Notes: generated by a model not told the origin, from the sequence alone. Positions 6,144 to 60,011 are shown, counted from the stretch's first letter. The stretch is 64,000 nt of DNA from Parcubacteria group bacterium (GCA_028286605.1 JAQBRE010000002.1:326011-390010), one strand, 5' to 3'. Numbers and translations: made by a program.

Positions 6144-6953
6144 ATGGAGGTTCGTGCATTCAGGAAAACTATATGGGATTTTTATAAGAAGCAGGGAAGG
6201 CATGATCTTCCGTGGCGAACGACGACGGACCCGTACAAGATCCTCGTTTCAGAAGTGATGCTGCAGCAGACGCAGGTGGAAAGAGTTTGCAGCTATTACG
6301 CAGCGTGGCTAAAACAGTTTCCGAACGTGAAGGCGCTCGCGGCTTCGCCGCTCGCCGACGTACTAACCGCGTGGCAAGGTCTCGGCTATAACCGGCGCGC
6401 GAAGATGCTGCACGATGCAGCAAAGGTAGTGGTACGAGAATACAAAGGAAAGATGCCGACCAATCCGGAACTGCTGGTAAAGTTGCCTGGCGTCGGCCCG
6501 TATACAGCGCGTGCGGTCGCAGCATTCAGTACGAATGCAGATGTCGTATTCATCGAGACGAATCTGCGCACCGTCGTATTGCATCATTTCTTTCCGAAGA
6601 AAAAGGTAGTGAGTGATGCAGAAATCCTTGAGGTTCTGACAGATGCCTTTCCTAAAGGAAAGGCTCGCGAATGGTATGCCGCACTTATGGACTACGGCTC
6701 GTACCTGAAGCGGAGCGGCGTAAGGGTGAATGCAAAGAGCAAGACGTATGCGAAGCAGTCTGCGTTTAGCGGCTCTGGGCGCGAAGCACGTGGTGCCGTG
6801 TTGAGAGAGCTTGCGAAAGGAGCGGTAACGCAGAAGCGCCTTGTTGGCTTGCTTGGTGATGACCGTACGGCACAAATCAGCGAGCAGCTTATGAAGCTGC
6901 TCGCTGAAGGGATGGTACAGAAAAGCGGCGTGCGCTATTCGCTTCCACGCTAA
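6144..6953 (+). CDS. A/G-specific adenine glycosylase (MutY)-like HhH-GPD protein without a NUDIX-like C-terminal domain
   Basis: LPWR...PY.ILVSEVMLQQTQV and GLGYNRRAKMLH, LPGVGPYTA motifs. The ATG at 6144 directly follows the nth stop. The longer ORF from 6075 overlaps nth. Confidence 0.7.
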   Translation: MEVRAFRKTIWDFYKKQGRHDLPWRTTTDPYKILVSEVMLQQTQVERVCSYYAAWLKQFPNVKALAASPLADVLTAWQGLGYNRRAKMLHDAAKVVVREYKGKMPTNPELLVKLPGVGPYTARAVAAFSTNADVVFIETNLRTVVLHHFFPKKKVVSDAEILEVLTDAFPKGKAREWYAALMDYGSYLKRSGVRVNAKSKTYAKQSAFSGSGREARGAVLRELAKGAVTQKRLVGLLGDDRTAQISEQLMKLLAEGMVQKSGVRYSLPR

Positions 6954-8143
6954 ACACGGTTCGCATCTACGTGCGTCATCTGGCGTACGGGGCGGAAACT
7001 GCGCACATGGGTCGCCGTAATCATGCCGACGAGCATCACGATTAAGCCCATGCATACGAAGAATATTTGGTATGTGCTGATAAGCAGGAAGATGCTGCCG
7101 ACAACCGGGGCAATCAGCGCGCTCAAGGGGCGCATCATGCGGAACACACTTACGGTGTCCGCGTCCCGTTCTGATACGCGACGGAAGAAATGTCCTTCAG
7201 TCATAGCCTCGACGAGCGCAGCACCGACGCGGCTGATGAACAGGATAAGCAAGATGATGAGGATAGAGGTACTTGCGGTGACGTACGCGATGAGTGCGAA
7301 TGCGGTGCCCATAATTATGAAGCCCGCAATGAGCAGCGCGCGATCACCGAGCTTCGTATCTGCAAGGATTCCTGCTGGATACTCCACCAGCACGAACGGT
7401 GCAAGCATAAGTGCGAATACCCAGCCAAGCTCGCTCCAGGGGATGCCAAGCACCGTATGCAGATAGAGTGGTATATATAGCTGCGCGAACTGATAGAAGG
7501 TCTGCAACATGAGCATAGATGCGGCGATGGCACGCAGGTCTGAATCTTTCATCACGTTGCGGATCGCTTCACGCGTACTGCTCTTGATCGCAGTGAGGCC
7601 GTGCGGCAGTTTCGCGCCAAACATAAGCAGGATGAATGGAACGAGCGAAAGGGAAGCGACGAAGAATATGCGGTCGTAGCGGTCGCCGCCATCCAGAAGC
7701 GTACCGATAATCAGAGGTGCCACGAGTAAAGCAGTATTACCTGCGGTGAGGAATGCAGTACGTATGCGGCCGGTCGAATTCTCATTCTCAACCGTTGCTT
7801 CAACGAGGATGTCGAGCTGATACGCAAGCAATGGTGCAATTGCGCAGGTAAGCGCGGCAAGTACGATGGCAGCGAACGGCGTCGGCGAAAGCGCAAGGCA
7901 AAGTAGTATGAATGCCTGCAGCAGACTGAAACCTAGGGCAAGCTGTTGTGCGCCGTATCTGCGCACGAGTTTCGGTATGAACGGAAATACTATCAAGGTT
8001 ACTACTGCGCCGAATGATATGACGAAGCCGGTAAGCGAGGCTGGCATGAACATGGCCAAATACGGGCCGAGCACGTACACGATAAGAAAGAAGTACGCAG
8101 ACGCGAAGAAATTACCGAACGAAAGTATCCGACGCGTGCGCAT
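6950..8143 (-). CDS. MFS-family transporter
   Basis: About 12 predicted TM helices in a 6+6 arrangement, 397 aa. Confidence 0.7.
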   Translation of the reverse strand: MRTRRILSFGNFFASAYFFLIVYVLGPYLAMFMPASLTGFVISFGAVVTLIVFPFIPKLVRRYGAQQLALGFSLLQAFILLCLALSPTPFAAIVLAALTCAIAPLLAYQLDILVEATVENENSTGRIRTAFLTAGNTALLVAPLIIGTLLDGGDRYDRIFFVASLSLVPFILLMFGAKLPHGLTAIKSSTREAIRNVMKDSDLRAIAASMLMLQTFYQFAQLYIPLYLHTVLGIPWSELGWVFALMLAPFVLVEYPAGILADTKLGDRALLIAGFIIMGTAFALIAYVTASTSILIILLILFISRVGAALVEAMTEGHFFRRVSERDADTVSVFRMMRPLSALIAPVVGSIFLLISTYQIFFVCMGLIVMLVGMITATHVRSFRPVRQMTHVDANRV

Positions 8144-8306
8144 GATTCACTCATTCTAGCATTCACATTCAATCCACAGGCTTTTGATATATTGTGCGCC
8201 TATGCGAAAACGTTTGAAACCCTGTGGTATTTAATTACATTCCGCACGAAATAGTTTATAAATTCTTTAGAATTACTTTATCTCCGTGCTGTATACTCGC
8301 GGAGCC

Positions 8307-8696
8307 ATGTCCTACGAAAAGAATTTTGATAGTTGGAATGAATCAAAGAAAACACTTGAGCACGGGCCTATTTTGCACTATGGTCATCCCGGCGAGGTGT
8401 GGTGGTGTTCTTTGGGAATTAATCTTGGTGTAGAAGTAGACGGCAGGAATGATAACTTCGAAAGACCTGTAGTGGTGTTGCGGACATATAATCGAGAATC
8501 TCTACTTGTCCTGCCACTTACCAGCAAAGAGAAGAATGACAGATTTCATCATCCTATTCACTTTGGGAAATACACGTCTTGGGCAAAACTTACGCAAGTT
8601 CGAGTTGTGAGCGCCAAGCGTCTTTTGCGCAAACTAGACTCAATAGATGAGAATGAGTTTTCCTTGTTAAGGAAAGCATGGATTGATTCTCAATAA
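8307..8696 (+). CDS. MazF/PemK-family endoribonuclease-like toxin paralog 1 (orphan, no adjacent antitoxin)
   Basis: GEVWWCSLG.N.G.E.DG...FERPVVVL....RESLLVLPLTSK matches the Kid/PemK/MazF fold signature (RP.lV.. / vP.TS). It sits in a low-GC islet. A TATACT -10 is 11 nt before the ATG at 8307, which suggests a leaderless mRNA. The track's GTG start at 8286 is also possible. Confidence 0.6.
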   Translation: MSYEKNFDSWNESKKTLEHGPILHYGHPGEVWWCSLGINLGVEVDGRNDNFERPVVVLRTYNRESLLVLPLTSKEKNDRFHHPIHFGKYTSWAKLTQVRVVSAKRLLRKLDSIDENEFSLLRKAWIDSQ

Positions 8697-8704
8697 TAAA
8701 CGAA

Positions 8705-8730
8705 TACCCGCAGAAATGCGGGTATTCTCG
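8705..8730 (+). terminator. Rho-independent terminator after mazF-like 1
   Basis: gaatacccgc-agaaa-tgcgggtattc hairpin. Confidence 0.55.
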
Positions 8731-8782
8731 AGGACCGAGCCCTAATAGACCTATTCTAACAAATCAGTGTCTGCTGCGTCAA

Positions 8783-10792
8783 CTAAACCCCGATCAGAAC
8801 GGGAATCACCATCGGTGCCTTGTTCGTGCGGTTGAAGAGGTAGCCGCTCACGACATCCGAAAGATTATTCTTTACGTAGTCGAGGTCTACCGGATTCATT
8901 CCCTGCGTGGAATCTTCAACGGTCTTCTTGATGAGCAGGCGTGCCTGATTGAGCAGGTCCTGGCTCTCGCGTAGATATACGAAGCCGCGCGAGATGATGT
9001 CCGGAGATTTGCGAAGCTTGCCGGTCTTCAGGTTAACGGTCGCGATGATGACGAACATGCCATCCTTCGCGAGTGCCTGACGATCACGGATAACCACTTC
9101 CTGCATGTCGCCGATAGCGAAGCCGTCAACGATGAGCGGAGAGGAAGGAACTTTATCCTTGTGAATCTCCATCTTCTCGCCATCGATGATGTCGATAACG
9201 GTACCGTTGTCTGCAACGACGATAGTGTCACGCGGACGTCCAGCCTGTTCCACCGCTTTCGCATGCGAAGCAGTCATAGAATAGTAGCCGTATGCAGGCA
9301 TGAAGAACTTCGCGTTGACCTTCTTGTTGATCCAGATGAGCTCGCCGGTGTTGCCGTGGCCTGTGGAGTGCACGTCGCTCGAGCGGTAATGGATGAGCGT
9401 CACGCCGTTGCGATACAGGTTGTCCTTCAGCGTCTGCACGGAGATCTCGTTTCCTGGAATGACCGAGGAAGAGAGGACGATCGTGTCGCGCGGATTGAGC
9501 TGGATGAACTTGTGCTGCTTCGTCGCGATGCGCATGAGCGCAGCGAACTGCTCGCCCTGGGCGCCGGTCGAAAGGATGACGATCTTATCGGGCGGATAGT
9601 CGGCCATTTCCTGTGCAGGAATGATCGTATCCTTCTTGATATCGATAAGGCCCGTCTTCTGTGCGATCTCGAGGTTCGTCTTGATAGAGCGACCTTCCGT
9701 CACGACTTTCTTTCCGAGCTTCTCGCAGGTCTCGATGATGTGGACCATACGCTCGAACTGCGAAGCGAACGTACCGATGATGAGTCGGCCGTGCACGTTC
9801 TTGATGATGTCTTCGAGAGTCTCGTGCACTTTGCGCTCTGGCATAGAGAAGCCGTCACGTTCAGCGTTCGTAGAGTCCGCGATGAAGAACAGGTTCTTCT
9901 GCGCAGCGAGAACGCCCCAGGTCTTCTCTTCAGCCGGCGTCGGAACGCCGTCATTGTGATCGAGCTTAAGGTCTCCTGTAACGACGACGTTGCCGTACGG
10001 AGTCTCGATAGCGATTCCCATGGAATCAGGAATCGAATGCGTTACGGCGAAGAACTGAACCTTGGTCGAGCCGATGGTCATGGTCTGACCAGCCTGCACG
10101 ACGACGAGGTTCGGCTTCGGTACGTCGGGATACTCTTCCTGACGCTTCGCGATCATCACGGCAGTGAGATTCTGCGTGTAGATCGGCGGATTGCCGAAAC
10201 GATTCATGAGGAACGGGATGCCGCCGATGTGGTCGAGGTGGCCGTGCGTGATGAATACGCCGCGGACGCGGTCTGCATTCTTTTCAAGATATGCGGTGTT
10301 CGGGAGCATGTAGTCCACGCCAGGATTCGCTTCCTCGGAAACGAACTGGAAGCCGACGTCGAAGATGAAGATGTCTCCATTGGTCTCGACGCAGAACATG
10401 TTGCGGCCCACTTCTTCTACGCCGCCGAGCGGAATGATGCGAACGACATTCGATGCCGGTGCGGCAGGAAAGTAGTCGGCAGTTCGCTTGGTGAGAGTCG
10501 GTGCGGGGCGACGCATGCGCATGCGGTCGCGGGATGAACCGTTGCGGCCGCCGGGGCTGCGTGATCCTTGCGGACGAGGTCCGTCGGAACGGGGAGCGCC
10601 TCCTTCGGAACGCTGGCCTTCAGGGCGCGGTCCATCAGGACGAGGTCCTCGTCCTTGGCCGCCACGACGTGAAGGACGGCGCGGACCCATAGATCGGTCG
10701 CCTTCAGTGCGTGCGCCTTCGGGACGCGGTGCGCTCGAACGGTCCTCGTTATTAGAGCGAGGTGCCGGAGCGGGTGCGGGTGCTGATGCCAT
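8783..10792 (-). CDS. rnj: Ribonuclease J (metallo-beta-lactamase/beta-CASP) with ~110 aa N-terminal Arg/Gly/Pro-rich disordered extension
   Basis: HGHLDHIGG motif and the beta-CASP/RNase J architecture, about 555 aa. The N-terminus is MASAPAPAPAPRS...RGGQGRGPRPDGPRPEG..., a low-complexity RGG-like tail. Confidence 0.85.
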   Translation of the reverse strand: MASAPAPAPAPRSNNEDRSSAPRPEGARTEGDRSMGPRRPSRRGGQGRGPRPDGPRPEGQRSEGGAPRSDGPRPQGSRSPGGRNGSSRDRMRMRRPAPTLTKRTADYFPAAPASNVVRIIPLGGVEEVGRNMFCVETNGDIFIFDVGFQFVSEEANPGVDYMLPNTAYLEKNADRVRGVFITHGHLDHIGGIPFLMNRFGNPPIYTQNLTAVMIAKRQEEYPDVPKPNLVVVQAGQTMTIGSTKVQFFAVTHSIPDSMGIAIETPYGNVVVTGDLKLDHNDGVPTPAEEKTWGVLAAQKNLFFIADSTNAERDGFSMPERKVHETLEDIIKNVHGRLIIGTFASQFERMVHIIETCEKLGKKVVTEGRSIKTNLEIAQKTGLIDIKKDTIIPAQEMADYPPDKIVILSTGAQGEQFAALMRIATKQHKFIQLNPRDTIVLSSSVIPGNEISVQTLKDNLYRNGVTLIHYRSSDVHSTGHGNTGELIWINKKVNAKFFMPAYGYYSMTASHAKAVEQAGRPRDTIVVADNGTVIDIIDGEKMEIHKDKVPSSPLIVDGFAIGDMQEVVIRDRQALAKDGMFVIIATVNLKTGKLRKSPDIISRGFVYLRESQDLLNQARLLIKKTVEDSTQGMNPVDLDYVKNNLSDVVSGYLFNRTNKAPMVIPVLIGV

Positions 10793-13312: not shown

Positions 13313-13726
13313 TTAGTCGGTGCCGCAGCCGCCGACGATCTTGGGTTGGCTGCTCAACACGAAAACTGTTTGGAGCAGGCCAACCATGGCGACAACGCAC
13401 CAGGTGATGCGGAACATGTCCTGCCATCCGTTGAGGTAGAACTCGTTCTGAGTGTGGCTGGTGGTCATGACCCAGCCGGCCCAGATGGCCGTGAAGACTA
13501 GCATGACATTGACCAGGACCATCACCGGCTTCGCCAGAGATCCACGCTCGAGCATGTCCATCAGGAAATAGTTCCTCATGGCGACGCCGCCCAGCGCACA
13601 TACAGTGATGACGCCGGCCGGGAAGATCTCGAAGGAGTTGTCCGAAAGGACACCCCAGCGAACTGCCAGGACGGCGCCGATAAGCAGAGTAGCGAGGCCG
13701 AAACCGAAATGAACACGGTGTTGCAT
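13313..13726 (-). CDS. Hypothetical 4-TM membrane protein (137 aa)
   Basis: Four hydrophobic helices. The Arg-rich 173 aa ORF in the other frame (13221..13742) is rejected. Confidence 0.45.
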   Translation of the reverse strand: MQHRVHFGFGLATLLIGAVLAVRWGVLSDNSFEIFPAGVITVCALGGVAMRNYFLMDMLERGSLAKPVMVLVNVMLVFTAIWAGWVMTTSHTQNEFYLNGWQDMFRITWCVVAMVGLLQTVFVLSSQPKIVGGCGTD

Positions 13727-13845
13727 GGCTCGGTTCTCCCAATAGCCGTTGATTTGGACTGGATATACTATAGCACTATAATTGTGTATTTGTCAAGTTA
13801 AGCAAATAATGTGACAGGGAAGCAGAAGTACTATTTGGAGATATC

Positions 13846-13875
13846 AAATAATGACCAGATTTCTGGTCATTATTT
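13846..13875. promoter_or_regulatory. 30 bp palindrome AAATAATGACCAGA-TT-TCTGGTCATTATTT. Candidate operator, 178 bp upstream of groES.
   Basis: Perfect 14 bp arms. A near-identical copy lies at 56862..56901. No CIRCE (TTAGCACTC-N9-GAGTGCTAA) or HAIR element is present upstream of groES. Confidence 0.5.
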
Positions 13876-14052
13876 AGAGTTGACGAAATAGAACTATCTA
13901 CGCGTACAGGGCGATAAAACAGCTTTATTTGACGCGTTTCTTGCATCTTCATATACTTAGCCTACCTGTGGATAACTTTTTGAGGCAGGGAAGCGTCTTG
14001 CCTCAGAATCCACGCATTTACAAGCGTTCTTCAACTCCCTAAGAGCGTATTT

Positions 14053-14355
14053 ATGGCTAAAAACAAAGTATCTATTTCACCGCTTGCCGATCGCGTCGTC
14101 GTACAGCCGTTCGCAAAGGAAGAAATCTCTGCTTCAGGCATCATAATTCCTGACACGGCAAAACAAGATAAACCTGAAAGGGGTACGGTTGTCGCAGCTG
14201 GTCCCGGTAAGTTCGAAGACGGTGCTCGCTCCCCTATGACCGTTAAAGTCGGAGATGTCGTCCTGTTCAGCAAGTATGGATATGACGAAGTGAAGATCGA
14301 CGGTCAGGAATACTTTATCTTGGCTGAATCCGCTATCCTCGCGAAAATCGACTAG
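14053..14355 (+). CDS. groES: Co-chaperonin GroES
   Basis: 100 aa. Canonical sequence (VSISPLADRVVV...GIIIPDTAK...GTVVAAGPG). Confidence 0.95.
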   Translation: MAKNKVSISPLADRVVVQPFAKEEISASGIIIPDTAKQDKPERGTVVAAGPGKFEDGARSPMTVKVGDVVLFSKYGYDEVKIDGQEYFILAESAILAKID

Positions 14356-14404
14356 CAACTCCCCCATTCAATTCCCTTTTATTTCTTTTCATTTAATCCT
14401 TTAA

Positions 14405-16057
<1,653 letters not shown>

Positions 16058-16095
16058 AAAACTGACTTCCCTGCCAGACGATATATAAAATGAGA

Positions 16096-16122
16096 CCCCG
16101 CCGACCATTCTGGTCGGCGGGG
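16096..16122 (+). terminator. Rho-independent terminator after groEL
   Basis: 12 bp GC-rich stem ccccgccgacca/tggtcggcgggg, followed by a T-rich tract. Confidence 0.65.
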
Positions 16123-16336
16123 TTACTCGTTTGAAATAGTATCTATCGATACCGTACGCCTGAAGTAATCAGGCTGACAATGATAAAGAGCGTTGCAGCG
16201 ATGAATTTTGCAGCATAGACATGCATTAGTATCCCCCTGTTTTTACTTCCATAACAATAAATCCAGAATGCTTCTTTCGCAACGCTTGAACACCTTTGAC
16301 AACGGAGTATACTGACTGCATAACCAATCTATTCCT

Positions 16337-16903
16337 ATGATTACTCTCTACATCGTGCTCGGCATCATTGTCGTTATCGTTCTCTGGGTTATCGCTGCTT
16401 TTAACGGATTCGTCTCGCGCGTTAACCATACGAAGGAAGCACTTGCTGATATCGATGTGCAGTTGAAGCGCCGGTATGACCTCATCCCTAACCTCGTTGA
16501 AACGGTGAAGGGATATGCCGCACACGAATCTGCTGCGTTCGAGAATGTAACCAAGGCTCGCGCGGCAGCCATGGGCGCAAGCTCAGGCACTCCTGCTGAA
16601 AAGGCCGCTGCTGAAAACCAGCTTTCCGGCACACTTAAAACGCTCTTCGCGGTTACGGAAGCGTACCCAGACCTTAAGGCGAATCAGAACTTCCTTCAGC
16701 TTCAGAAAGAGCTTGGCGACACGGAAGACAAGATTCAGGCTGCACGCCGCTTCTACAACACCAACGTTCAGGACCTCAACACTGCACTCCAGTCTTTCCC
16801 TGGAAACATTATCGGTTCTTCGTTCCACTTCCAGAAAATGGATCTCTTCCAGCTCGATGCGACTGATTCTGCTGCTCGCGAACCGGTTAAAGTCAGTTTC
16901 TAG
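16337..16903 (+). CDS. lemA: LemA family protein
   Basis: N-terminal TM, then the LemA signature (NGFVSRVNHTKEALADIDVQLKRRYDLIPNLVETVKGYA). Confidence 0.85.
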   Translation: MITLYIVLGIIVVIVLWVIAAFNGFVSRVNHTKEALADIDVQLKRRYDLIPNLVETVKGYAAHESAAFENVTKARAAAMGASSGTPAEKAAAENQLSGTLKTLFAVTEAYPDLKANQNFLQLQKELGDTEDKIQAARRFYNTNVQDLNTALQSFPGNIIGSSFHFQKMDLFQLDATDSAAREPVKVSF

Positions 16904-16994
16904 GCTGCGTAGAAGCATTCTTCAGATTTTCTTTATCTCGTCTTGATATCTTTTTGAAGGCGAGCAAAAGCTTCGATTGATATACTGACAAGAT

Positions 16995-17273
16995 ATGATT
17001 AAAAAAGAACTCACACTCAAAAAAGACACTAAGAAAGAAAGCGAAATCGCAGCACTGGCTCGTATGGTAGCGAATGGATTTAACCATATGCTCGAAGTGA
17101 TGGACGAAAAATTTGAGGCAGTCGATAAGCGATTCGATAAATTAGAGGATCGCGTGGATATTTTAGAAAATAAAGTTGATGGAATTAGTGACCTTCTCCA
17201 CAGTGTGGTTATGCCGACACTTGAAGCTCACGACGGACGTATTAAACGTATAGAAAAAACAGCATTCGCATAA
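16995..17273 (+). CDS. Hypothetical coiled-coil protein (92 aa) in a low-GC islet between lemA and htpX
   Basis: Heptad-like region EVMDEKFEAVDKRFDKLEDRVDILENKVDGISDLL. Local GC is about 40% against about 57% in the flanks. Confidence 0.4.
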   Translation: MIKKELTLKKDTKKESEIAALARMVANGFNHMLEVMDEKFEAVDKRFDKLEDRVDILENKVDGISDLLHSVVMPTLEAHDGRIKRIEKTAFA

Positions 17274-24381: not shown

Positions 24382-24402
24382 TTAACAATCTTATAGTTTG
24401 TA

Positions 24403-24432
24403 AGAAAAGCGTCCGGTGGACGCTTTTCTTAC
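24403..24432 (+). terminator. Rho-independent terminator after nrdB
   Basis: aagaaaagcgtccgg-tggacgcttttctta. Confidence 0.6.
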
Positions 24433-24448
24433 GTTATAATTTAATATA

Positions 24449-25111
24449 ATGTTCTCGAACTTCGAGCTACCGCAAAAAGTAATAGATATAACTGCAAGCA
24501 TCATAATCTTCGTAGCAATGCACGTGCCACTTTTGAGTCATGCTTTGCTTGCGGGACCAACTATTAATGAGCCTCAATATACTCAAATTGCTCATACACA
24601 GCCTGTAATTATTCCAACGCAATCAATTCAACCTGTTCAGCAAAAATCTCCCTCAGGTATGTCCAGCTCAACACCACAACAGGTTGGAGAGTTTACTGTA
24701 GTTGTAAACTGCAAAGACTTTAATCCTGTAAGTGCTATTATCTTAAAAAATGAATCGATAGTACAAACGATTTCTATTCTAGGTGCAGGAATAACGGGAA
24801 TTCATATGTGTGTACCAGCAGAAGTAAAGGATATTAATTTTGATAGCTATCCTGACTTTATGGTTCCATCTGATAATGGTAGTGGAGGTGCCACTTATGA
24901 TTATTGGCTATTTAGCTCAACAACACAGCAATTTTCGTGTCCAGAGGGAAATTATAGATGTGGTTTGATGAATCCAGAATTTGATTCAACGGCTAAAACT
25001 GTTATTAGTGTAGAACCGACTGGGGCAGGTCATGTCACTACAGACACTTATCGAATTCTTAATGGAAGGTTAGTTCTCTTGAAAGAGGTAAAGGAGAATG
25101 ATTACGAATAA
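24449..25111 (+). CDS. Hypothetical secreted/anchored Cys-containing protein (220 aa) encoded in a low-GC (~38%) islet
   Basis: N-terminal hydrophobic anchor and a Gln/Pro-rich linker. A TATAAT box lies 12 nt upstream. Local GC is far below the flanks. Confidence 0.5.
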   Translation: MFSNFELPQKVIDITASIIIFVAMHVPLLSHALLAGPTINEPQYTQIAHTQPVIIPTQSIQPVQQKSPSGMSSSTPQQVGEFTVVVNCKDFNPVSAIILKNESIVQTISILGAGITGIHMCVPAEVKDINFDSYPDFMVPSDNGSGGATYDYWLFSSTTQQFSCPEGNYRCGLMNPEFDSTAKTVISVEPTGAGHVTTDTYRILNGRLVLLKEVKENDYE

Positions 25112-25153
25112 TTTCGAAGCACGCCCGATTTATTTGTAAGCGAAACGCTCGCG

Positions 25154-26131
25154 GTGCGTCATACGTACTATAAAGGTATGGGTATATCACTTGGTTTCAT
25201 GAACATGAAGAAAATAATCTATGGATTCGTGGCTGTAGGAATGCTGCTGATCTCAGCGCCTGCATATGCGCAAACGGCTCCGAATACAGGCACAGGCAGT
25301 AGCGGCACATCAAGCAACTGGTCAGGCTATGCGGCTGCAGGAGGAAATTACACGGGCGTTAACGGAAGCTGGACGATACCGGCGGCATCTCCGATTTCGG
25401 GAACGAAGCTTTCAGCGGACGCCGCATGGGTGGGTATCGGCGGCCTCACCACGAAGGACCTGATCCAGGCAGGCACGGAATCAGAGGTACAGAACGGTTC
25501 GGTTATTTATCAGGCGTGGTATGAGGCACTTCCTGCTGGGCAAGTGCAGGTTCCGGTGACTGTTCATGCGGGCGATAAAGTGACCGTTTCTTTGAACGAA
25601 ACCTCAACGAATGTCTGGCATCTTATATTTACGAATACGACGACGGGAAATGCATACCAGACGGATATCAATTACAGTTCCTCGCAGTCTTCCGCAGACT
25701 GGATAGAGGAAATGCCGGTCGGGCAGTTCGGTACTACGTCTTCGTATGTCCCGCTCGATATGTTCGGTACGATCCAGTTCAGTAATGCGTACGACACGAC
25801 GAACGGAAACGTGCAGACACTTACGAGTGGAGGAGCGCTCCCGCTTACGATGATGAATACGAATCGTCAGGCGCTCGCTACACCTTCAAGTATCGGTACG
25901 GACGCAGAAAGCTTCAGCGTGGCGCGTACGAATGCGACGGTTTCATCGACAGAAGTATCGCAAGTAGTGCAGAGCAGTCGTGGTTTCCGTCGCGGTGGCG
26001 AGGGCGTGACAAGCTATACGCCTGGAACACGCTATGTACAGCACACGCAGCAGGTCATCATGCGACAAACGCAGCAGATCATAACCCGTTCGGGCAATAC
26101 GATAAGCGTTCAGTTTTATTTGAGTCGCTAG
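25154..26131 (+). CDS. Peptidase G1 (eqolisin / scytalidoglutamic peptidase) family homolog, secreted
   Basis: Motifs SSNWSGYAAAG, AAWVGIGG, DLIQAGTE (catalytic Gln), AWYEA, SADWIEE (catalytic Glu), in the order and spacing of fungal eqolisins. Signal peptide from MKKIIYGF (the ATG at 25205 is the likely true start). Confidence 0.7.
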   Translation: MRHTYYKGMGISLGFMNMKKIIYGFVAVGMLLISAPAYAQTAPNTGTGSSGTSSNWSGYAAAGGNYTGVNGSWTIPAASPISGTKLSADAAWVGIGGLTTKDLIQAGTESEVQNGSVIYQAWYEALPAGQVQVPVTVHAGDKVTVSLNETSTNVWHLIFTNTTTGNAYQTDINYSSSQSSADWIEEMPVGQFGTTSSYVPLDMFGTIQFSNAYDTTNGNVQTLTSGGALPLTMMNTNRQALATPSSIGTDAESFSVARTNATVSSTEVSQVVQSSRGFRRGGEGVTSYTPGTRYVQHTQQVIMRQTQQIITRSGNTISVQFYLSR

Positions 26132-44383: not shown

Positions 44384-46483
44384 CTAGAATAGATTCGCCA
44401 GGAACGTTCGTAACCAAGAAGCGAATACGCCAACCGAGGCAAGAAGGGAAGTGTGCGATACGACAGGAGCAATAGAGACCTGGCCCTGATATTCATAGGC
44501 GCCACGATCATAGGTTCCATCTGCGCCGCGAGTAACGCCGTATGCATCAACATTGTACGGTGAGCCGAGACTCACGCCTGGATTGAGTGGCGCACTCAGA
44601 TGGTAATCGCTCGTGAATACGTCAGTGCCGCTGCGAACGAATGGATCGGTACTCGAACCAATCTGAGCATTTGTATCATTCAGAGCTGCACCGGGGTTTT
44701 CGTCCACTGGAGTAGGAACACCGCTGGTTCGAACGTTTTTTGAGAAGTAATCGTTCGCGTGCGTTACGCCAAAGAAGCCGAATCCGTTACTTTGGTTGTT
44801 GTACCAGATATTGTTATAGACCAGATTGTTCGTGCCTTGTTCTATATGAAGCGCACCCACTGACGAGTTCTTCATATTCACCACGTCGTTGTTATAGAAC
44901 TGAAGATTATCCATTTCCTGCAAATCATTTCCCGTATGGTAGTAGTAGATGGTACTGACGCTGTCAGAGAAGATGTTTCCATAGATGCTCCAGTTCGTAG
45001 ATATTCCAAGATTAACTCCCGCGAATACGCCCGTCCCATTAATATCGTTCCAAATATTATTACGGAACGTCCAATTATCATTGGTTCCCTGTGAGGAGAC
45101 GCCTTCAGCATGATAGTTGGGGCAGATTGGATCGGTGTAGCCGGTGCTCTTCACGCCATCAATGGCATTATCTTCAATAAGAACGTTACTCCAATTGTTG
45201 AGATAGAATGCAGCACCGAACAAATTGTGCAGATAGTTGTCGCGGAAGGTGAAACCAGTTCCACCTGTCGTTCCGTTTATGCCGCGCATCGGGAACGTTA
45301 TGTCACCAGCATACGCGTTAACGTGCTCAATCGTGAGATTAGAGACCGTGTTAGTAAGCTGGAAGAGCATATGGAAGCCATTGCAGACTGGATTAGTCTG
45401 CGTAACGGTAATGCCGAAGCCGCTCGTCCAGTTTCCTGGGCCTCCCCCGGTTGAACCGTCAAGCACGTAGTACGGGGTCGTGTAGTTGAACATCGGGAAC
45501 GTGGCCGTTCCGGTTCCATAGGAAGAAATCCAGCCCGTATCAGTTCCGTGATTGCTCTGGGTGGCTTTCTTAACGGTTATTAGTGTACTGCCAGAGGCCG
45601 CATCGCTGAAGGTGTGGATGGCATATTCTGTTCCGGAGCCGCAGAGGTAATAGGTATCACCGCGCACCAATGATTTAGGAAGGTCGAGATAGGCGTTGGT
45701 CCAGTCAGCACCGGTATGTGTGCCTGCCGTTGCGTCAGGACACACATATACGAACGTAGGATCCGTAACCGTTGGAGTTACTGGCACTACCGGTAGTACT
45801 ACGGGAGGCTTATTGGATATCGGAGTAGGCGTAGGGTCCGGCGTCGGGGTAGGTGTGGGAGTAGGCGCTGGCGGAGTAACGGTGGTCGTTTGAGTATTCG
45901 TATCGGATGTACCGGTAACTGAAGAAACAGTATTCGTAACGGTCGAAATAATCGTGCCAAGCACGGATGTTGATACTGGCGTCGATGCAGGAGCCGGAGA
46001 CGGCGCAGAAGATACGGCTGGTGCAGGCGCGCCCGTGTTTGAGGAAATACGCGGAACGCTTGGCGACACATATGTGGATGGTGAAACTGCTGAATGTGCA
46101 GCAACAGGAATTTGAGGAGCAATACCCAAGAGGGAATAATCCTTGAGGCTGTCGCTTGCCTTGACGGGTTGTCCCTTGGTAGCAGGGATGATGACTCGCG
46201 TCATGAGTCCGTATGCTCCGGGTGCTGAAACGATGACAACCGCGATAAGTACTAACTGAAGGAAAATGCTCGTCTTGCTGTGCGCAGGAGCCCTTTGAAC
46301 CGAGGAATATTGGGTCTGTGAACGCAACGCGAAAGGTCCTGTCTGGATTTTCAGGATAGCAAATGCGCCATTTACGTCTTCCGCACTCGACCCTTTAGAA
46401 GTGAGGTCTTTAAGAATGTCTTCTTCAGAATGCCCTGAGGCCTGTTTCTGACGTATGGTGTCGAGAAGTTCCTGGCTAGCCAT
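44384..46483 (-). CDS. Single-pass membrane protein with a conserved cytoplasmic N-domain, Pro/Thr-rich linker and extracellular right-handed beta-helix domain (paralog of 33436..35295)
   Basis: The N-terminus QELLDTIRQKQASGHSEEDILKDLTSKGSSAEDVNGAFAILK matches the first paralog. TM IFLQLVLIAVVIVSAPGAYGL. Linker PTPTPTPTPDPTPTP. Repetitive N/G/T-rich beta-helix rungs (NNIWND, YGNIFSD, YNNDVVN). Confidence 0.6.
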   Translation of the reverse strand: MASQELLDTIRQKQASGHSEEDILKDLTSKGSSAEDVNGAFAILKIQTGPFALRSQTQYSSVQRAPAHSKTSIFLQLVLIAVVIVSAPGAYGLMTRVIIPATKGQPVKASDSLKDYSLLGIAPQIPVAAHSAVSPSTYVSPSVPRISSNTGAPAPAVSSAPSPAPASTPVSTSVLGTIISTVTNTVSSVTGTSDTNTQTTTVTPPAPTPTPTPTPDPTPTPISNKPPVVLPVVPVTPTVTDPTFVYVCPDATAGTHTGADWTNAYLDLPKSLVRGDTYYLCGSGTEYAIHTFSDAASGSTLITVKKATQSNHGTDTGWISSYGTGTATFPMFNYTTPYYVLDGSTGGGPGNWTSGFGITVTQTNPVCNGFHMLFQLTNTVSNLTIEHVNAYAGDITFPMRGINGTTGGTGFTFRDNYLHNLFGAAFYLNNWSNVLIEDNAIDGVKSTGYTDPICPNYHAEGVSSQGTNDNWTFRNNIWNDINGTGVFAGVNLGISTNWSIYGNIFSDSVSTIYYYHTGNDLQEMDNLQFYNNDVVNMKNSSVGALHIEQGTNNLVYNNIWYNNQSNGFGFFGVTHANDYFSKNVRTSGVPTPVDENPGAALNDTNAQIGSSTDPFVRSGTDVFTSDYHLSAPLNPGVSLGSPYNVDAYGVTRGADGTYDRGAYEYQGQVSIAPVVSHTSLLASVGVFASWLRTFLANLF

Positions 46484-49842: not shown

Positions 49843-51117
49843 CTATTTCTTGTGGCGACGAAGGAAGCTTGGAATCGCGCCCCAGGTGTCGTCCTCTTCT
49901 TCGACGATAGGCGGCGTGATGGCCTGTGCGGTTTCGCGAGGCTTCGGCATTGCCGTTACGATAGGCTCTTCGCGTTCGCGGCGAGGAGGAAGGATAGGTC
50001 CCTCGTCTTCTGGCATTGGCATAGATGCTGGCGCTTCTTCGCGCGGTGCAGGGCGGCCGAGCACGTCATTGAAGATCTTTCCGCGGCTTTCTTCCTGCTC
50101 CTTCGCAGGCATCGTGAAGAGCGAGCGTTCGCCACCTGTGTATGACGCGGATCCATCCTGTTCAGGGAAACCGGTCGCGATGACGATGATGCGGAGCTGG
50201 CCCTTCTTAAGCTTCTCATCGCGCATGATACCGAAGATGACCTTCGCGCTCTTATCAACGGATTCGCCGATAACCTTCGCTGCTTCCTGTACTTCAAGGA
50301 TGCCGAGGTCGTCTGAACCTGCGACCACAAAGAGGATGCCACGAGCGCCGGTGATGGAAACATCGAGGAGCGGGGAATTAACGGCTGCTGCAGCGGCGTC
50401 CTTGGCACGGTTGTCGCCGTCTGCGATACCGATACCCATGAGCGCTGGGCCGGCACCTTCCATGATCGCCTTGATGTCGTTGAAGTCCGTGTTGATTTCA
50501 CCAGGAGTGGTGATGATATCGGAAACACCTTCCACTGCCTGACGAAGGATTTCATCGCAGAGCGCGAATGCATTCTTCGCGGAGGTCTGTGCTTCTACGA
50601 TAGAGAGAAGCTTGTCGTTAGGAATAACGAGATATGCGTCTACTTCCTTCTTAAGAGAAGCAAGACCGACTTCAGCGATCTCGGTGCGCTGTGCGCCTTC
50701 GAAGGTGAACGGCTTGGTGACGACGGCAACGGTGAGCGCGCCGAGCTCCTTCGCGATCTTCGCGACGACGCCTGCTGCGCCTGTTCCTGTTCCGCCACCC
50801 ATGCCGCAGGTGATGAAGACCATGTCTGAACCCTGAAGCGCTTCCTGAATCTCCTGACGTGTCTCTTCAGCGGCACGACGGCCGAGCTCTGGGTTCATTC
50901 CAGCACCGAGGCCCTTCGTGAGGTTCTTGCCGATGTGGATCTTACGCTTCGCGAGGCTGCGGTGCAGATCTTGCGCGTCCGTATTGATAGCGATGAACTC
51001 CACGCCCTTCACCTTGGAGTTGATCATGTGATTAACAGCATTGCCGCCAGAACCTCCACAGCCGACGACGCGGATGCGTGCGAACGTTTCGATTTCAGGG
51101 GTTACGCGCTTGGACAT
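49843..51117 (-). CDS. ftsZ: Cell division GTPase FtsZ
   Basis: GGGTGTGAAGVVAKIAKE tubulin signature. 424 aa with a C-terminal tail. Confidence 0.97.
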   Translation of the reverse strand: MSKRVTPEIETFARIRVVGCGGSGGNAVNHMINSKVKGVEFIAINTDAQDLHRSLAKRKIHIGKNLTKGLGAGMNPELGRRAAEETRQEIQEALQGSDMVFITCGMGGGTGTGAAGVVAKIAKELGALTVAVVTKPFTFEGAQRTEIAEVGLASLKKEVDAYLVIPNDKLLSIVEAQTSAKNAFALCDEILRQAVEGVSDIITTPGEINTDFNDIKAIMEGAGPALMGIGIADGDNRAKDAAAAAVNSPLLDVSITGARGILFVVAGSDDLGILEVQEAAKVIGESVDKSAKVIFGIMRDEKLKKGQLRIIVIATGFPEQDGSASYTGGERSLFTMPAKEQEESRGKIFNDVLGRPAPREEAPASMPMPEDEGPILPPRREREEPIVTAMPKPRETAQAITPPIVEEEDDTWGAIPSFLRRHKK

Positions 51118-51249
51118 AGGGGTATACGAAGAATGTGCCGGTTAGTCAACACATAGTACCAAATCCTTTAACAATGCAAACCTTGACGGGTTAATAGCCT
51201 GTGTTCGGGTTTATAAGCACTTTATCTCTTTTTAGTACGATAGAGGGCT

Positions 51250-51636
51250 ATGAAAAAAGATTTTAAAGGGTGGAATAAACAAAAAAGCGATATTGATGAT
51301 TCAGCACCACGACCATTCTTTCGTGAAGGTGAAGTATGGTGGTGCTCTTTAGGTGCGAACATTGGTTTTGAAATGGATGGAAAGAATGAAATATTCGAAC
51401 GTCCAGTATTTATACTTAAAAAATTCAATAATGAGACATGTTTGGTTCTCCCTACAACGTCTCAATCTAAGTCTGGACGTTTCTATTATCCATATATGAG
51501 TAATGGAAAGAAATTTGCAATTAATCTGTCACAAGTTCGACTTCTTGATGTAAAACGTTTGAGGCGTAGAGCGTATGTTCTGTCCCAAAAGCAACACAGT
51601 GAAATTAAAACTAAATTCATATCACTCCTTGAATAG
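51250..51636 (+). CDS. MazF/PemK-family endoribonuclease-like toxin paralog 2 (orphan), in a low-GC islet between ftsA and ftsZ
   Basis: GEVWWCSLGANIGFEMDG...FERPVFIL...ETCLVLPTTSQ aligns with the 8307..8696 protein over its full length. No antitoxin-sized ORF is adjacent. Confidence 0.6.
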   Translation: MKKDFKGWNKQKSDIDDSAPRPFFREGEVWWCSLGANIGFEMDGKNEIFERPVFILKKFNNETCLVLPTTSQSKSGRFYYPYMSNGKKFAINLSQVRLLDVKRLRRRAYVLSQKQHSEIKTKFISLLE

Positions 51637-51638
51637 AC

Positions 51639-51662
51639 GAAACCGCCCTTTCGGGCGGTTTC
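51639..51662 (+). terminator. Rho-independent terminator after mazF-like 2
   Basis: gaaaccgccc-tttc-gggcggtttc. Confidence 0.6.
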
Positions 51663-51780
51663 TCAGGGGCATGAAGCCGTATCAGATCGAAACTATGCAC
51701 TGCATAGAATCTCGGGGGCACGAAGGCCGTAATGTAGTTAGTATATCAGGCATCAAAATAGCGTCAACAAAAACAAGTTT

Positions 51781-51852: not shown

Positions 51853-53019
51853 CTATGGCATGAACTGCTTTATGAATCGTGCGAAGCCGCGTGTCAGATC
51901 GCCCATGACGTTTTTCTTCGGCGTATCGGTGTCTCCGGTGAGTCCCCAGAGCGCGAGACCATACGCGACTGCCCAGGTCGCGTCACGGATCTTCGTTTCA
52001 GAAGTGATGCGCATATCTGCAAGGCGCGACGGAAGGCTGAGCGTTCCTTTCGCAATATCACTGATCGTTCCCTGGCCTGCGCCGCCGCCGGAAAGGATGA
52101 TGCCGGCAGGAAGCGAGCCGTGACGATTGAGCGAACGAAGATGCTTCTCAATTAATTCGAACATCGTACGGAAACGAAGCGCGATTATTTCTTCGACTTT
52201 CTTTTTCGGATACATCGTGCCGGAAAGACGTCCGAGCTTGATGCGCTCCGCATCCTCAAGAGAGATCTTGAAACCGAGCGCGAGGTCGTCAGTGATATTA
52301 GTCGAACCGGTCTGGAATACTTTTACGGAAATGGGAAGGCCTTCATCGTAGACGACGATGGAAACGGTCTCGGCGCCGATGTTCGCGAGGACGCAGCCCT
52401 TCATCTTCTGATCTTTCGTAAGCGTTACGTACGAACCAGCAAGTGGGGAAGCCATGCGATCTATCACTTCGATGTCTGCGCCCTCTACGGCAGCGGTAAG
52501 CTGCTCTGCGTGCTGCGAAAGGCACGTAACGAACAGGAACTCACCTTCGAGGCGCGTACCCTTCATGCCGATGGGCGCGCCGAGCGTCTTCACGCCGTCA
52601 ACACGAAATTCCAAAGGAATTTCGTGCAGGACCTTGCGGTTCAGGAACTGAGGCTCGGCGGTACGTCGAGCCTCGTCACGCACCTTCTCCATATCTAAAT
52701 CGGTGATCTCCTGATCTGCGCGTGAGATTATCGTCTGGCCGCTTGCACGCGTCTCATCAAGTGACACGCCGCCCACTGCAAGGAAGGCAGACTTGATCGG
52801 CATGTGGATGATGCTCTCTGCCTGGCCCTTCGCGAGCTGAATGCTTTCGATGGCATCCTGCAGATCAACCACGTAGCCATGACGCAACCCCTGCGTCTCA
52901 CTGAGCCCGGTACCGATGATGCGTACCTGCGGACCCTCCTCGGTTATGACCTCTTCAACCACCACGACTTTCGTCTGGTGCGTGCCGATGTCAATTCCTG
53001 TTGCGATTCTTCGAGCCAT
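51853..53019 (-). CDS. ftsA: Cell division protein FtsA
   Basis: Actin-fold N-terminus GIDIGTHQTKVVV, and the SHS2 insert. 388 aa. Confidence 0.9.
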   Translation of the reverse strand: MARRIATGIDIGTHQTKVVVVEEVITEEGPQVRIIGTGLSETQGLRHGYVVDLQDAIESIQLAKGQAESIIHMPIKSAFLAVGGVSLDETRASGQTIISRADQEITDLDMEKVRDEARRTAEPQFLNRKVLHEIPLEFRVDGVKTLGAPIGMKGTRLEGEFLFVTCLSQHAEQLTAAVEGADIEVIDRMASPLAGSYVTLTKDQKMKGCVLANIGAETVSIVVYDEGLPISVKVFQTGSTNITDDLALGFKISLEDAERIKLGRLSGTMYPKKKVEEIIALRFRTMFELIEKHLRSLNRHGSLPAGIILSGGGAGQGTISDIAKGTLSLPSRLADMRITSETKIRDATWAVAYGLALWGLTGDTDTPKKNVMGDLTRGFARFIKQFMP

Positions 53020-55996: not shown

Positions 55997-56230
55997 TTTA
56001 TTCGCTCGTCAAATGTTCTGTATTCGTTTCATTATTTACGCACGCTACTTGCTGAAAGAGAATCTATTTTCTTATCAAGAATATCTATTTTCATTGATTG
56101 TTTCTGCGCATCTTCTCAGTATTTCGTGAGTAAAGAAAAATATGCACCGACTTGAGCTGCGTTTACGAATAACTCTTCAGTTTTTCTTTATCTCGGCTAC
56201 AGGCCCTTATGAATGCTATGATTCGGTGCA

Positions 56231-56830
56231 ATGGGATATGTACTGATAGGTCTTGGAAACCCCGGGGGTGAATATGCGAAAACACGCCATAATGCAGGCC
56301 GTATGGCCGTTGAGCTTCTCGCAAAGGAAGAGGGATTCCCTGAATTCACGTTGAAAAAGACCGCAAATGCGATGGTGAGCGAAGGAACGATCGGCGGCGA
56401 GAAAGTAACGCTCGTGCTGCCGGATGTCTCGATGAACCTTTCAGGAAAGGTCGCGCCATCATTCGTGAAGTCAAAGCCTGCTGCGAAGAAAATGATCGTC
56501 ATTCGCGATGAATTGGATCTACCGCTCGGCGTGATAAAGATGACCGTGCCAGGACGTGGCTCAGGCGGCCACAAAGGCGTTGAGAGCATCATGCGCGCGC
56601 TCAAGACTAAAGACTTCGTACAGATAAAGATCGGCATCTCTGCAGAGACAGCGAAAGGGAAGCTGAAGAAGCCAGCAGCAGGAGAAAAAGTAATCAAGCA
56701 CGTGATTGGAAAATTCAAGCCTGCAGAAGAAGCTACGCTCAAGGATACGCTTGCGCGTACGACTCAAGCAGCACGGCTTTTCATTACTGACGGCATCGAA
56801 GCGGCCGCAATGAAAGCGAACACGCGCTAA
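56231..56830 (+). CDS. pth: Peptidyl-tRNA hydrolase
   Basis: YVLIGLGNPGGEYAKTRHNAGRMAV N-terminal signature. 199 aa. Confidence 0.9.
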   Translation: MGYVLIGLGNPGGEYAKTRHNAGRMAVELLAKEEGFPEFTLKKTANAMVSEGTIGGEKVTLVLPDVSMNLSGKVAPSFVKSKPAAKKMIVIRDELDLPLGVIKMTVPGRGSGGHKGVESIMRALKTKDFVQIKIGISAETAKGKLKKPAAGEKVIKHVIGKFKPAEEATLKDTLARTTQAARLFITDGIEAAAMKANTR

Positions 56831-59822: not shown

Positions 59823-59942
59823 AACTGCTCCTTTTCAAGGAATAGAGACGTGCGAAATGCTCGCCTTTCAGTTCCATACTAAATATAACACACAATAATA
59901 AAATATGTCAATACTTTAAAATAGTATCCATATAAATGAAAA

Positions 59943-59970
59943 CCCCCGCTCGCGTGATGCGAAACGGGGG
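59943..59970 (-). terminator. Hairpin terminator after the 47 aa ORF (minus strand)
   Basis: cccccg-N16-cggggg, with ttttcattt following on the minus strand. Confidence 0.45.
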
Positions 59971-60011
59971 CGCTTTCATAAGTCCGAAGACCTAAGAAAG
60001 ATTGTTGGCGG

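Follow-up and report, generated by a model that had tools for sequence, protein, structure and literature searches.

A gene for a MazF/PemK-like toxin in a Parcubacteria group bacterium is met at its 3′ end by a predicted convergent gene for a small structured RNA (sRNA). In the window (the whole 64,000-nt stretch of DNA analysed, GCA_028286605.1 JAQBRE010000002.1:326011-390010), the toxin gene (8307..8696; 129 aa, ATG start) lies on the plus strand between the genes for an MFS transporter (6950..8143) and RNase J (rnj; 8783..10792), both on the minus strand, as an earlier note on this DNA had observed, and the predicted sRNA gene (~55 nt) occupies 8692..8746 on the minus strand. The earlier note had described a lone orphan toxin, a description that we abandon: the convergent sRNA gene is present at the toxin 3′ end in ~95% of family members. 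From comparison of these sequences, the existence of the sRNA gene and its coupling to the toxin appear hardly open to doubt, and the sRNA probably regulates or neutralises the toxin, whatever the mode. Our main interpretation, offered tentatively, is that the locus represents a compact toxin/RNA-antitoxin module of two genes, which entered between rnj and the MFS gene by insertion and would act by an antisense mechanism. The control of solo toxins is an old open question, and here one large MazF/PemK subfamily carries a linked sRNA instead of a protein antitoxin.

The assignment of the 129-aa product to the Kid/PemK/MazF-like proteins, made in the earlier note from sequence motifs, is borne out. 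The protein scores 54.6 bits against Pfam PemK_toxin (PF02452; cut-off 23.1), and an AF2 model made from a 40-sequence alignment (pLDDT 85.7) has the MazF fold: the 50 best Foldseek matches listed against the PDB are all MazF-family toxin structures (probability 1.0, TM 0.58-0.65), and those listed include M. tuberculosis MazF-mt1, S. aureus MazF, B. subtilis YdcE, B. anthracis MoxT and a B. cereus mRNA interferase. Single-protein searches of the toxin against NCBIfam and PDB sequences returned no match. When the family profile was compared with the PDB, the feRPv and lpLTsk segments of the toxin aligned with gvRPV and aaITgr of S. aureus MazF, respectively, and we take the aligned Arg and Thr to be the catalytic R25 and T48 of B. 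subtilis/S. aureus MazF. The first of these residues, R53, is invariant in the toxin family, and T72 is conserved at a level of at least 90%. The fold and the catalytic residues, both of which the earlier note had wanted checked, are thus those of a MazF protein. Because the Arg53/Thr72 equivalents are conserved, an inactive decoy, one of the options raised earlier, is unlikely, and the gene product is probably an active MazF/PemK-fold RNase. The subfamily is further set apart by an extra N-terminal helix, KDFDxWNxxKK (KNFDSWNESKK in the window), with invariant W10 and K14, and by an unusually invariant beta1-beta2 loop, G37-N39-E43-G46-K47. It comprises 488 loci among 185,579 species-representative genomes, nearly all of them CPR/Patescibacteria, and 1,937 clusters at 50% identity (E<=1e-10).

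At the protein level, the toxin family is really solitary. As claimed previously, no antitoxin-sized ORF adjoins the gene: antitoxin-like ORFs of at least 20 aa were sought in 8144-8306 and 8697-8782 and none was found. Whether homologues elsewhere are equally solitary had been posed as a question, and a survey of 75 of the 80 fetched loci, in which three genes per side were clustered from crude gene calls, revealed no neighbour family in more than three loci. An AlkB-like gene considered as a partner of the toxin was discarded on the same grounds, being non-recurrent among the neighbours of the 75 loci. The region 8100-8800 contains no tandem or direct repeats beyond chance 8-12-mers and hence no type III-style array.

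The segment is AT-rich, as had been noted, with a GC content of 0.40-0.44 over 8100-8700 against 0.53-0.575 in the flanks. This composition is in part a trait of the toxin family: the toxin CDS is lower in GC than its flanks in 71 of 75 loci, with a mean gap of 8 points, and its GC tracks that of the host (r = 0.79, 75 loci). The segment was indeed inserted between the MFS and RNase J genes. The window derives from a Parcubacteria-group MAG, with an MFS protein 100% identical to JWM39_416. In relatives with MFS proteins 86%, 77% and 68% identical to that of the window, MFS comes immediately after RNase J, across a gap of 76-102 nt that holds another terminator. This identifies ~610 bp at 8170-8782 as an insertion; R2, the covariance model of the sRNA introduced below, has no match at four related empty-site loci. 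The view of the insert as a fresh single-gene cassette fares less well, given that the site is also occupied in relatives with 80-84% identical toxins and that the insert of one of them, L084, holds an extra gene. This gene, an intact 2OG-Fe(II)/AlkB-like gene between MFS and toxin, survives in the window as a C-terminal relic (8192..8254, plus strand) that retains only the last ~11 codons, ETLWYLITFRT. In the L082 lineage, toxin identity (84%) exceeds MFS identity (70%), which, together with the patchy presence of the module, suggests that the locus either spread by recombination transfer or was repeatedly lost. In the window, the insertion cost rnj its native terminator, a function that the module now provides.

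The sRNA gene emerged from an alignment of the window with L083 (99% identical), L081 and L082 (84%) and L084 and L085 (80%). Among these close relatives, the stretch of ~85 bp that separates the stop codons of the toxin and RNase J genes is far better conserved than the CDS, the hairpin within it shows two compensatory changes, and the minus strand folds, with z-scores of -3.9 to -4.2, into a short 5′ hairpin followed by a terminator hairpin of 11 bp with its U-tract. Five close sequences alone served to build a first covariance model (R1), whose matches fell on the minus strand, precisely over the stop codon of the toxin, in the majority of the 80 CPR-species loci (E-values down to 1e-9). 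A second model (R2), rebuilt from 44 matches, recovers the sRNA in 75 of the 80 loci at E<5e-7, and the remainder of 647 kb yields next to none. Of the five loci that R2 misses, at least three (L060, L071 and L072) hold recognisable divergent copies. The 80 surveyed loci come from different CPR species, and the position of the sRNA is constant whatever the neighbouring genes, with the toxin stop codon lying at a fixed offset, 9 nt from the R2 3′ end, in most copies. The window itself harbours a second pemK-like paralog (51250..51636, plus strand; 128 aa, PF02452 score 39.4 bits) in another low-GC island, between ftsZ and ftsA, and here, too, a second, more divergent sRNA copy is situated at the stop codon (51622..51687, minus strand; R2 match 33.6 bits, E 1.7e-8).

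The sRNA represents an RNA family absent from Rfam: cmscan with Rfam 15 gave no match at the sRNA positions, whether in the window (E<=10) or in seven typical loci (E<=1), and full-text literature searches yielded no description of the toxin/sRNA pairing. Matches of a hairpin pattern scan of metagenome contigs (25 in total) were all chance GC-rich sequence and none was related, and those of the 16-mer GGCTTCGGCCTCCGAG in viral contigs were CDS of unrelated high-GC phages with no pemK nearby, which speaks neither for nor against carriage of the module by phages. Of the possibilities listed in the earlier note, an RNA antitoxin proved to be the productive lead, in that a conserved convergent sRNA gene exists in ~95% of the loci; the proposed search of the 5′ UTR and the antisense strand succeeded on the antisense strand, with the difference that the sRNA gene overlaps the 3′ end of the toxin gene and not its 5′ UTR.

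The family consensus of the sRNA reads 5′-AUUA-[GGGC-UUCG-GCCU]-CCGAG-[8-11-bp variable stem, GNRA loop]-CGAUUUUUUAUA-3′. The copy in the window, a clade-specific variant, has the same layout of 5′-AUUA, hairpin 1, a linker (CUCGAG), hairpin 2 and a U-tract. Its hairpin 1 (8731..8743, minus strand) is AGGGC-UCG-GUCCU versus GGGC-UUCG-GCCU in most of the family, and its hairpin 2 (8702..8727, minus strand), an 11-bp perfect stem that constitutes an intrinsic terminator, has a flipped loop, UUUC versus GAAA in close relatives. The U-tract (8701..8692, minus strand) spans the toxin stop codons at 8694-8699. The segment AUUA-GGGCUUCGGCCUC-CGAG is ~90-99% conserved, whereas the toxin proteins are only 40-60% identical. 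In hairpin 2, all 11 pairs covary and 97.5% of cells pair; over the whole sRNA, 88.9% of cells pair and double changes occur in 14 of 16 pairs. RNAalifold likewise found covariation in 13 of 13 predicted pairs. These pair counts come from an alignment fitted to the model, and the controls argue against an artefact: none of 500 shuffles reached the observed pairing, and sliding the partners collapsed the signal. UUCG caps hairpin 1 in 59 of 84 copies and GNRA caps hairpin 2 in ~51 of 84, and G·U pairs outnumber A·C pairs by 62 to 7, which together fix the sRNA strand as minus, opposite the toxin.

The predicted promoter of the sRNA in the window (8753..8782, minus strand) comprises a -35 box TTGACG (8782..8777), an 18-nt spacer and an extended -10 box TGtTAGAAT (8761..8753), with the predicted start, A8746, being the A of the conserved AUUA. 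Close relatives share TTGACR-18 nt-TGnTAnAAT, in which the two hexamers and the distance between them are preserved although the intervening sequence has diverged in L081, L084 and L085. Across the family, where promoters are mostly TTGACA/T with 16-18 nt and TATACT/TATAAT, a sigma-70 promoter with at least 9 of 12 matches at the fixed distance is present in 66 of 83 copies (80%), compared with 55 of 5000 random positions (1.1%). The T-run of the 8702-8727 hairpin is found on the minus strand only, so the hairpin ends the sRNA, along with RNase J read-through, and not the toxin mRNA; the toxin's 'own terminator' of the earlier note should be struck from the annotation. A reading of the hairpin primarily as the RNase J terminator, and of the conserved block as the RNase J 3′ UTR, was rejected, because the element follows the toxin in 75 of 80 loci, mostly without rnj, and the rnj terminator of empty-site relatives is a different one. 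Moreover, in 50 of 68 loci the toxin gene and the gene that follows it point the same way, so that a minus-strand terminator there serves no neighbouring gene; the sRNA is accordingly its own transcription unit.

Upstream of the toxin gene, a -10-like box, TATACT (8292..8297, plus strand), is invariant among the relatives (A2/A3), while the GGAG adjoining the ATG is not conserved. The earlier proposal of a TATACT promoter giving a leaderless mRNA is upheld as regards the box and its plausible consequence, with the spacing to the ATG amended from 11 to 9 nt. More broadly, a -10-like box ends 4-12 nt before the toxin start in 49 of 79 loci versus 19% at random positions, a full promoter is present at only 7 of the 79 toxin genes and a Shine-Dalgarno-like core at only 3, so that the toxin mRNA is plausibly leaderless or nearly so and transcribed from a weak promoter without a -35 box. 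Pairing of the CCUCC of the sRNA with the Shine-Dalgarno sequence of the toxin was dropped as a mechanism in view of the same 3 of 79. Farther upstream, the motif TCTTTAGAATTACTTTATCTC (8264..8284, plus strand) is kept in relatives of the window clade and recurs in L007, L031, L045 and L005 and in the second window copy; it may be an operator or a second promoter. No U-tract follows the hairpins on the plus strand, which implies that the toxin transcript must run through the sRNA gene.

As the main mode of action of the sRNA we lean, with limited conviction, towards antisense pairing. Gene 1 would encode a MazF/PemK-fold endoribonuclease, expressed from a weak promoter as a leaderless or near-leaderless mRNA without its own terminator, and gene 2 would produce, from the opposite strand and a strong canonical promoter, a highly structured sRNA of ~55-65 nt with a terminator ending on the toxin stop. 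In any toxin transcript crossing 8697-8746, complementarity to the sRNA is automatic, and the 3′ end of the toxin mRNA would be fully complementary to the sRNA. The abundant sRNA would pair with the toxin mRNA around the stop codon and in the 3′ UTR, with contact initiated by the single-stranded U-tail/A-tract and the CCGAG linker, and duplex-dependent decay or blocked termination would then lower toxin synthesis in a type I-like fashion with 3′ overlap. We prefer this scheme because the complementarity is built in, because the promoters are strong for the RNA and weak for the toxin, and because 3′-overlap precedents exist. Unequal promoters of this kind, strong for the antitoxin and weak for the toxin, are the classic mark of type I, and convergent antisense RNAs overlapping the toxin 3′ end are familiar from the type I systems txpA/RatA and bsrG/SR4 of B. 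subtilis and the par system, fst/RNA II, of E. faecalis. Several features of the family nevertheless strain an antisense scheme. A cis-antisense RNA needs no conserved primary sequence, yet the sRNA motif is conserved to the extent given above; rigid UUCG/GNRA tetraloops make poor kissing loops, and stable hairpins would lock both partners; and the N-terminal helix and the invariant beta1-beta2 loop of the toxin fit direct RNA recognition better.

These features would find a ready explanation if the sRNA acted in a type III-like manner, with its unpaired AUUA and CCGAG contacting the MazF-like dimer and the RNA serving as pseudo-substrate or inhibitor, which we consider possible but doubtful. 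The convergent overlap may then mainly secure linkage and perhaps add a second layer of control. Across CPR, the unpaired segments and tetraloops are strongly conserved while the stems vary by compensatory change, the toxin family has its own N-terminal helix (W10, K14) beside the invariant beta1-beta2 loop, and the fold of the toxin, that of MazF/Kid, is also found in ToxN. Two further observations tend the same way, namely the occurrence of two tandem sRNA genes at L002 and the presence, in Helicobacter plasmid relatives with a different RNA, of a similar linker, CCAGAG, between covarying hairpins. Yet to our knowledge all type III antitoxins are tandem repeats located upstream on the toxin's own strand and processed by the toxin, and there are no repeats here; nor does protein binding need a fixed overlap at the stop codon. 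Direct binding would amount to a new toxin-antitoxin (TA) class, in which a MazF/PemK RNase is neutralised by a non-repeated structured sRNA, and we would give this class a minority chance of being real. Equally uncertain is its delineation as a repeat-less, convergent counterpart of type III, possibly with 3′ antisense control in addition, that extends over hundreds of CPR/Patescibacteria species and has analogues in the RNAs of Helicobacter/Nitratiruptor plasmids. If true, such a class would explain a sizeable share of the 'solo' MazF genes. Antisense pairing and protein binding may also coexist.

It is unlikely, though less so than an orphan toxin, that the sRNA is a real RNA with a function other than that of an antitoxin, either as an insulator, its convergent promoter and terminator blocking read-through into and out of a mobile gene, or as the RNA of a non-toxic protein that processes it or partners it in a protein-RNA complex (RNP), for example in defence sensing. 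The module does occur in unrelated contexts, often between co-directional genes, its role as the replacement rnj terminator in the window would suit an insulator, and solo toxin homologues with other roles are common (PMC2701414). For an insulator, however, UUCG/GNRA loops, unpaired sequence conserved at ~95% and a strong promoter would all be superfluous, the toxin retains the catalytic residues of a sequence-specific RNase, and relatives reside on small Helicobacter plasmids, a setting in which one would look for an addiction module; as to defence, PADLOC-DB anti-phage profiles were matched by neither paralog (0 families). Least probable by far is a true orphan with an unlinked protein or RNA antitoxin, or an inactive decoy, whose downstream hairpin is the toxin terminator: the lack of an adjoining antitoxin ORF and the precedent of the solitary MazF-mx of Myxococcus xanthus, reportedly neutralised by the unlinked MrpC (PMC4803016), are outweighed by a U-tract on the other strand, by a hairpin that forms part of a covarying RNA gene with its own promoter, present in 75 of 80 relatives, and by catalytic residues whose conservation makes a decoy unlikely.

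Read as a toxin with an RNA antitoxin, the module is neither type II, nor canonical type I, nor type III. With type II MazEF/PemIK (Kis-Kid) it shares the PF02452 toxin family, the SH3-like barrel and the catalytic Arg/Thr, but no MazE/PemI-type (AbrB or RHH) gene adjoins the toxin here or in the 75 relatives, the window toxin adds an N-terminal helix with invariant Trp and Lys, and its partner is a convergent sRNA gene. The txpA/RatA, bsrG/SR4 and fst/RNA II systems resemble it in their convergent sRNA with a strong promoter, the 3′ overlap at a shared terminator hairpin, the weak toxin promoter, compactness and horizontal mobility, and the type I hallmark of a cis-encoded, opposite-strand sRNA gene overlapping the toxin was found, as a predicted gene, at 75 of the 80 loci. 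Type I toxins, however, are small (<60 aa) hydrophobic membrane peptides, in contrast to the 129-aa soluble RNase fold here, and the antisense RNAs of these systems are not known to be conserved in sequence across phyla; the present RNA family also carries UUCG and GNRA tetraloops. In SymE/SymR of E. coli, likewise type I, a protein toxin that cleaves RNA is controlled by a cis-encoded antisense RNA, and the system is comparable in having an enzyme-like, RNA-targeting toxin rather than a membrane peptide; SymR, though, overlaps the 5′ end and start codon, and the SymE fold is AbrB/MazE-like, not MazF. The pemK RNA motif of Rfam, reportedly described by Weinberg et al. 2017 as a candidate structured RNA upstream of pemK genes in Firmicutes, also adjoins pemK, but on the upstream side and in Firmicutes, and the Rfam 15 cmscan has no match here.

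The type III systems ToxIN, CptIN and TenpIN consist of tandem 34-40-nt repeats upstream of the toxin on the same strand, with a terminator before the toxin, which cuts the repeats (PMC3401426, PMC5086642). They are similar to the module in pairing an endoribonuclease of MazF/Kid-like fold with an RNA antitoxin, a candidate one in the present case, and differ from it in that here the RNA is single, non-repeated and encoded on the opposite strand with its own promoter, and the toxin is of the PemK family rather than the ToxN family. MazF-mx, also a mazF homologue without an adjoining mazE, differs in that an unlinked transcription factor is the reported neutraliser and no linked RNA is known (PMC4803016). 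Makarova et al. 2009 counted over half of the toxin homologues in the largest families as 'solo' and raised RNA antitoxins as a possibility (PMC2701414).

Relatives of the toxin beyond CPR, 30-36% identical and with the same N-terminal extension, were retrieved by tblastn from Helicobacter/Nitratiruptor plasmids and Campylobacter CJIE4 prophages; the copies on Campylobacter megaplasmids are frameshifted pseudogenes. R2 gave no significant match at the Campylobacterota and Lactobacillus relatives, and a sigma-70 consensus scan there found nothing, as expected of -35-less promoters. On the strand opposite the toxin, four Helicobacter plasmids nonetheless carry an extended -10 (TGnTAnAAT) followed by covarying hairpins that are joined by CCAGAG and end at the stop codon (five-sequence alignment), which is suggestive of a toxin/convergent-RNA arrangement older than the CPR RNA family. 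CPR bacteria have very small genomes, lack genetics and have few known defence or regulatory RNAs, and the sRNA may be among the first candidate regulatory sRNAs for them; the relatives on small Helicobacter plasmids may be more tractable. The sRNA gene also bears on protein annotation: in one subclade, the toxin ORF crosses the whole sRNA gene, yielding LGGRSH and SEAEATN tails, and conserved C-terminal 'tails' of this sort, seen in some members of the family, result from translation running on into the RNA gene.

The window carries a complete second toxin/sRNA module at 51250-51687, set in an island with a GC content of 0.36 and flanked by ftsZ (49843..51117, minus strand) on one side and ftsA (51853..53019, minus strand) on the other. 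Its toxin is a pemK-like paralog of 128 aa (PF02452, 39.4 bits), and the convergent sRNA copy is divergent, scoring 33.6 bits against R2, the rebuilt covariance model of the predicted sRNA; no canonical promoter was seen upstream of this copy. One or more further toxin paralogs probably exist in this MAG beyond the window: P0012 (JWM39_652), 55% identical, would be the third, to judge from the locus-tag prefix that JWM39_652 and the MFS protein of the window, JWM39_416, have in common. Two weak R2 matches on the minus strand may represent either ordinary terminators or leftovers of lost modules: one, at 16075-16141 (21 bits, E 0.002), lies immediately past the groEL stop, and the other, at 59922-60000 (17 bits, E 0.06), falls within an AT-rich gap and comprises an AGGUC-UUCG-GACU hairpin and a terminator, with no toxin gene.

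In the window, hairpin 2 has an inverted tetraloop (8713-8716), which reads UUUC on the RNA strand; the loop is GAAA in the 99% identical relative L083 and in the remaining close relatives. The loop appears to have flipped very recently, inside a perfect palindrome. At locus L002 (4370-4526), a tandem pair of sRNA genes, each with its own TTGACA/TATAMT promoter, is found downstream of a single toxin gene. Several family proteins (P0051, P0058, P0060, P0063, P0065, P0070, P0073 and P0076, and those of loci L001, L065 and L077) end in seemingly conserved C-terminal tails, ..IKIGPRISAGSSEAEATN.. and ..LGGRSH. In this subclade the toxin ORF extends across the sRNA gene, and the tails are the conserved sRNA gene (CTCGGAGGCCGAAGCC) translated on the plus strand.

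Upstream of the main toxin gene, an ORF of 20 codons (8192-8254; MCAYAKTFETLWYLITFRTK) is the C-terminal relic of a 2OG-Fe(II)/AlkB-like gene, which is intact in the close relative L084 (189-770), with the MFS gene on one side and the toxin gene on the other. In a subset of the toxin family, a conserved motif, TTTAGAATT-N-CTTTATCTC, is located 20-45 nt 5' of the start codon, occurring in the window at 8264-8284 and 51226-51236 and in the upstream regions of loci L007, L031, L045 and L005. Its distance from the -10 box is too short for a -35 element, so that an operator or an additional promoter is possible.

Distantly related toxins, with 30-36% identity, were found on Helicobacter plasmids (L111, L236, L237 and L238), a Nitratiruptor plasmid (L112) and Campylobacter prophage CJIE4-3 (L114). 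In these, an extended -10 box opposite the toxin 3' end is followed by 2-3 hairpins finishing at the stop codon; the Helicobacter hairpin copies display covariation and have a CCAGAG linker in common, and L238 additionally carries an RHH-domain gene 122 nt upstream. Among the 36 Campylobacter plasmids with a toxin copy, the one inspected, on a 105-kb megaplasmid of Campylobacter coli (L113, 1500-1960), is unannotated and, being broken by frameshifts, is a pseudogene; the other Campylobacter matches listed are also in two pieces and unannotated.

Five further low-GC islands in the window (13601-14400, 16801-17200, 24401-25200, 44801-45200 and 56001-56400), with GC contents of 0.38-0.46 compared to the 0.50-0.58 typical elsewhere, may be additional inserted cassettes. 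RNase J carries an N-terminal low-complexity extension of ~100 aa (10400-10792), rich in Pro, Arg and Gly and with a GC content of 0.66-0.70, in which no Pfam domain was matched, the first domain match starting from residue 130; the protein is 669 aa long in the window versus 579 aa in the relative at locus L240.
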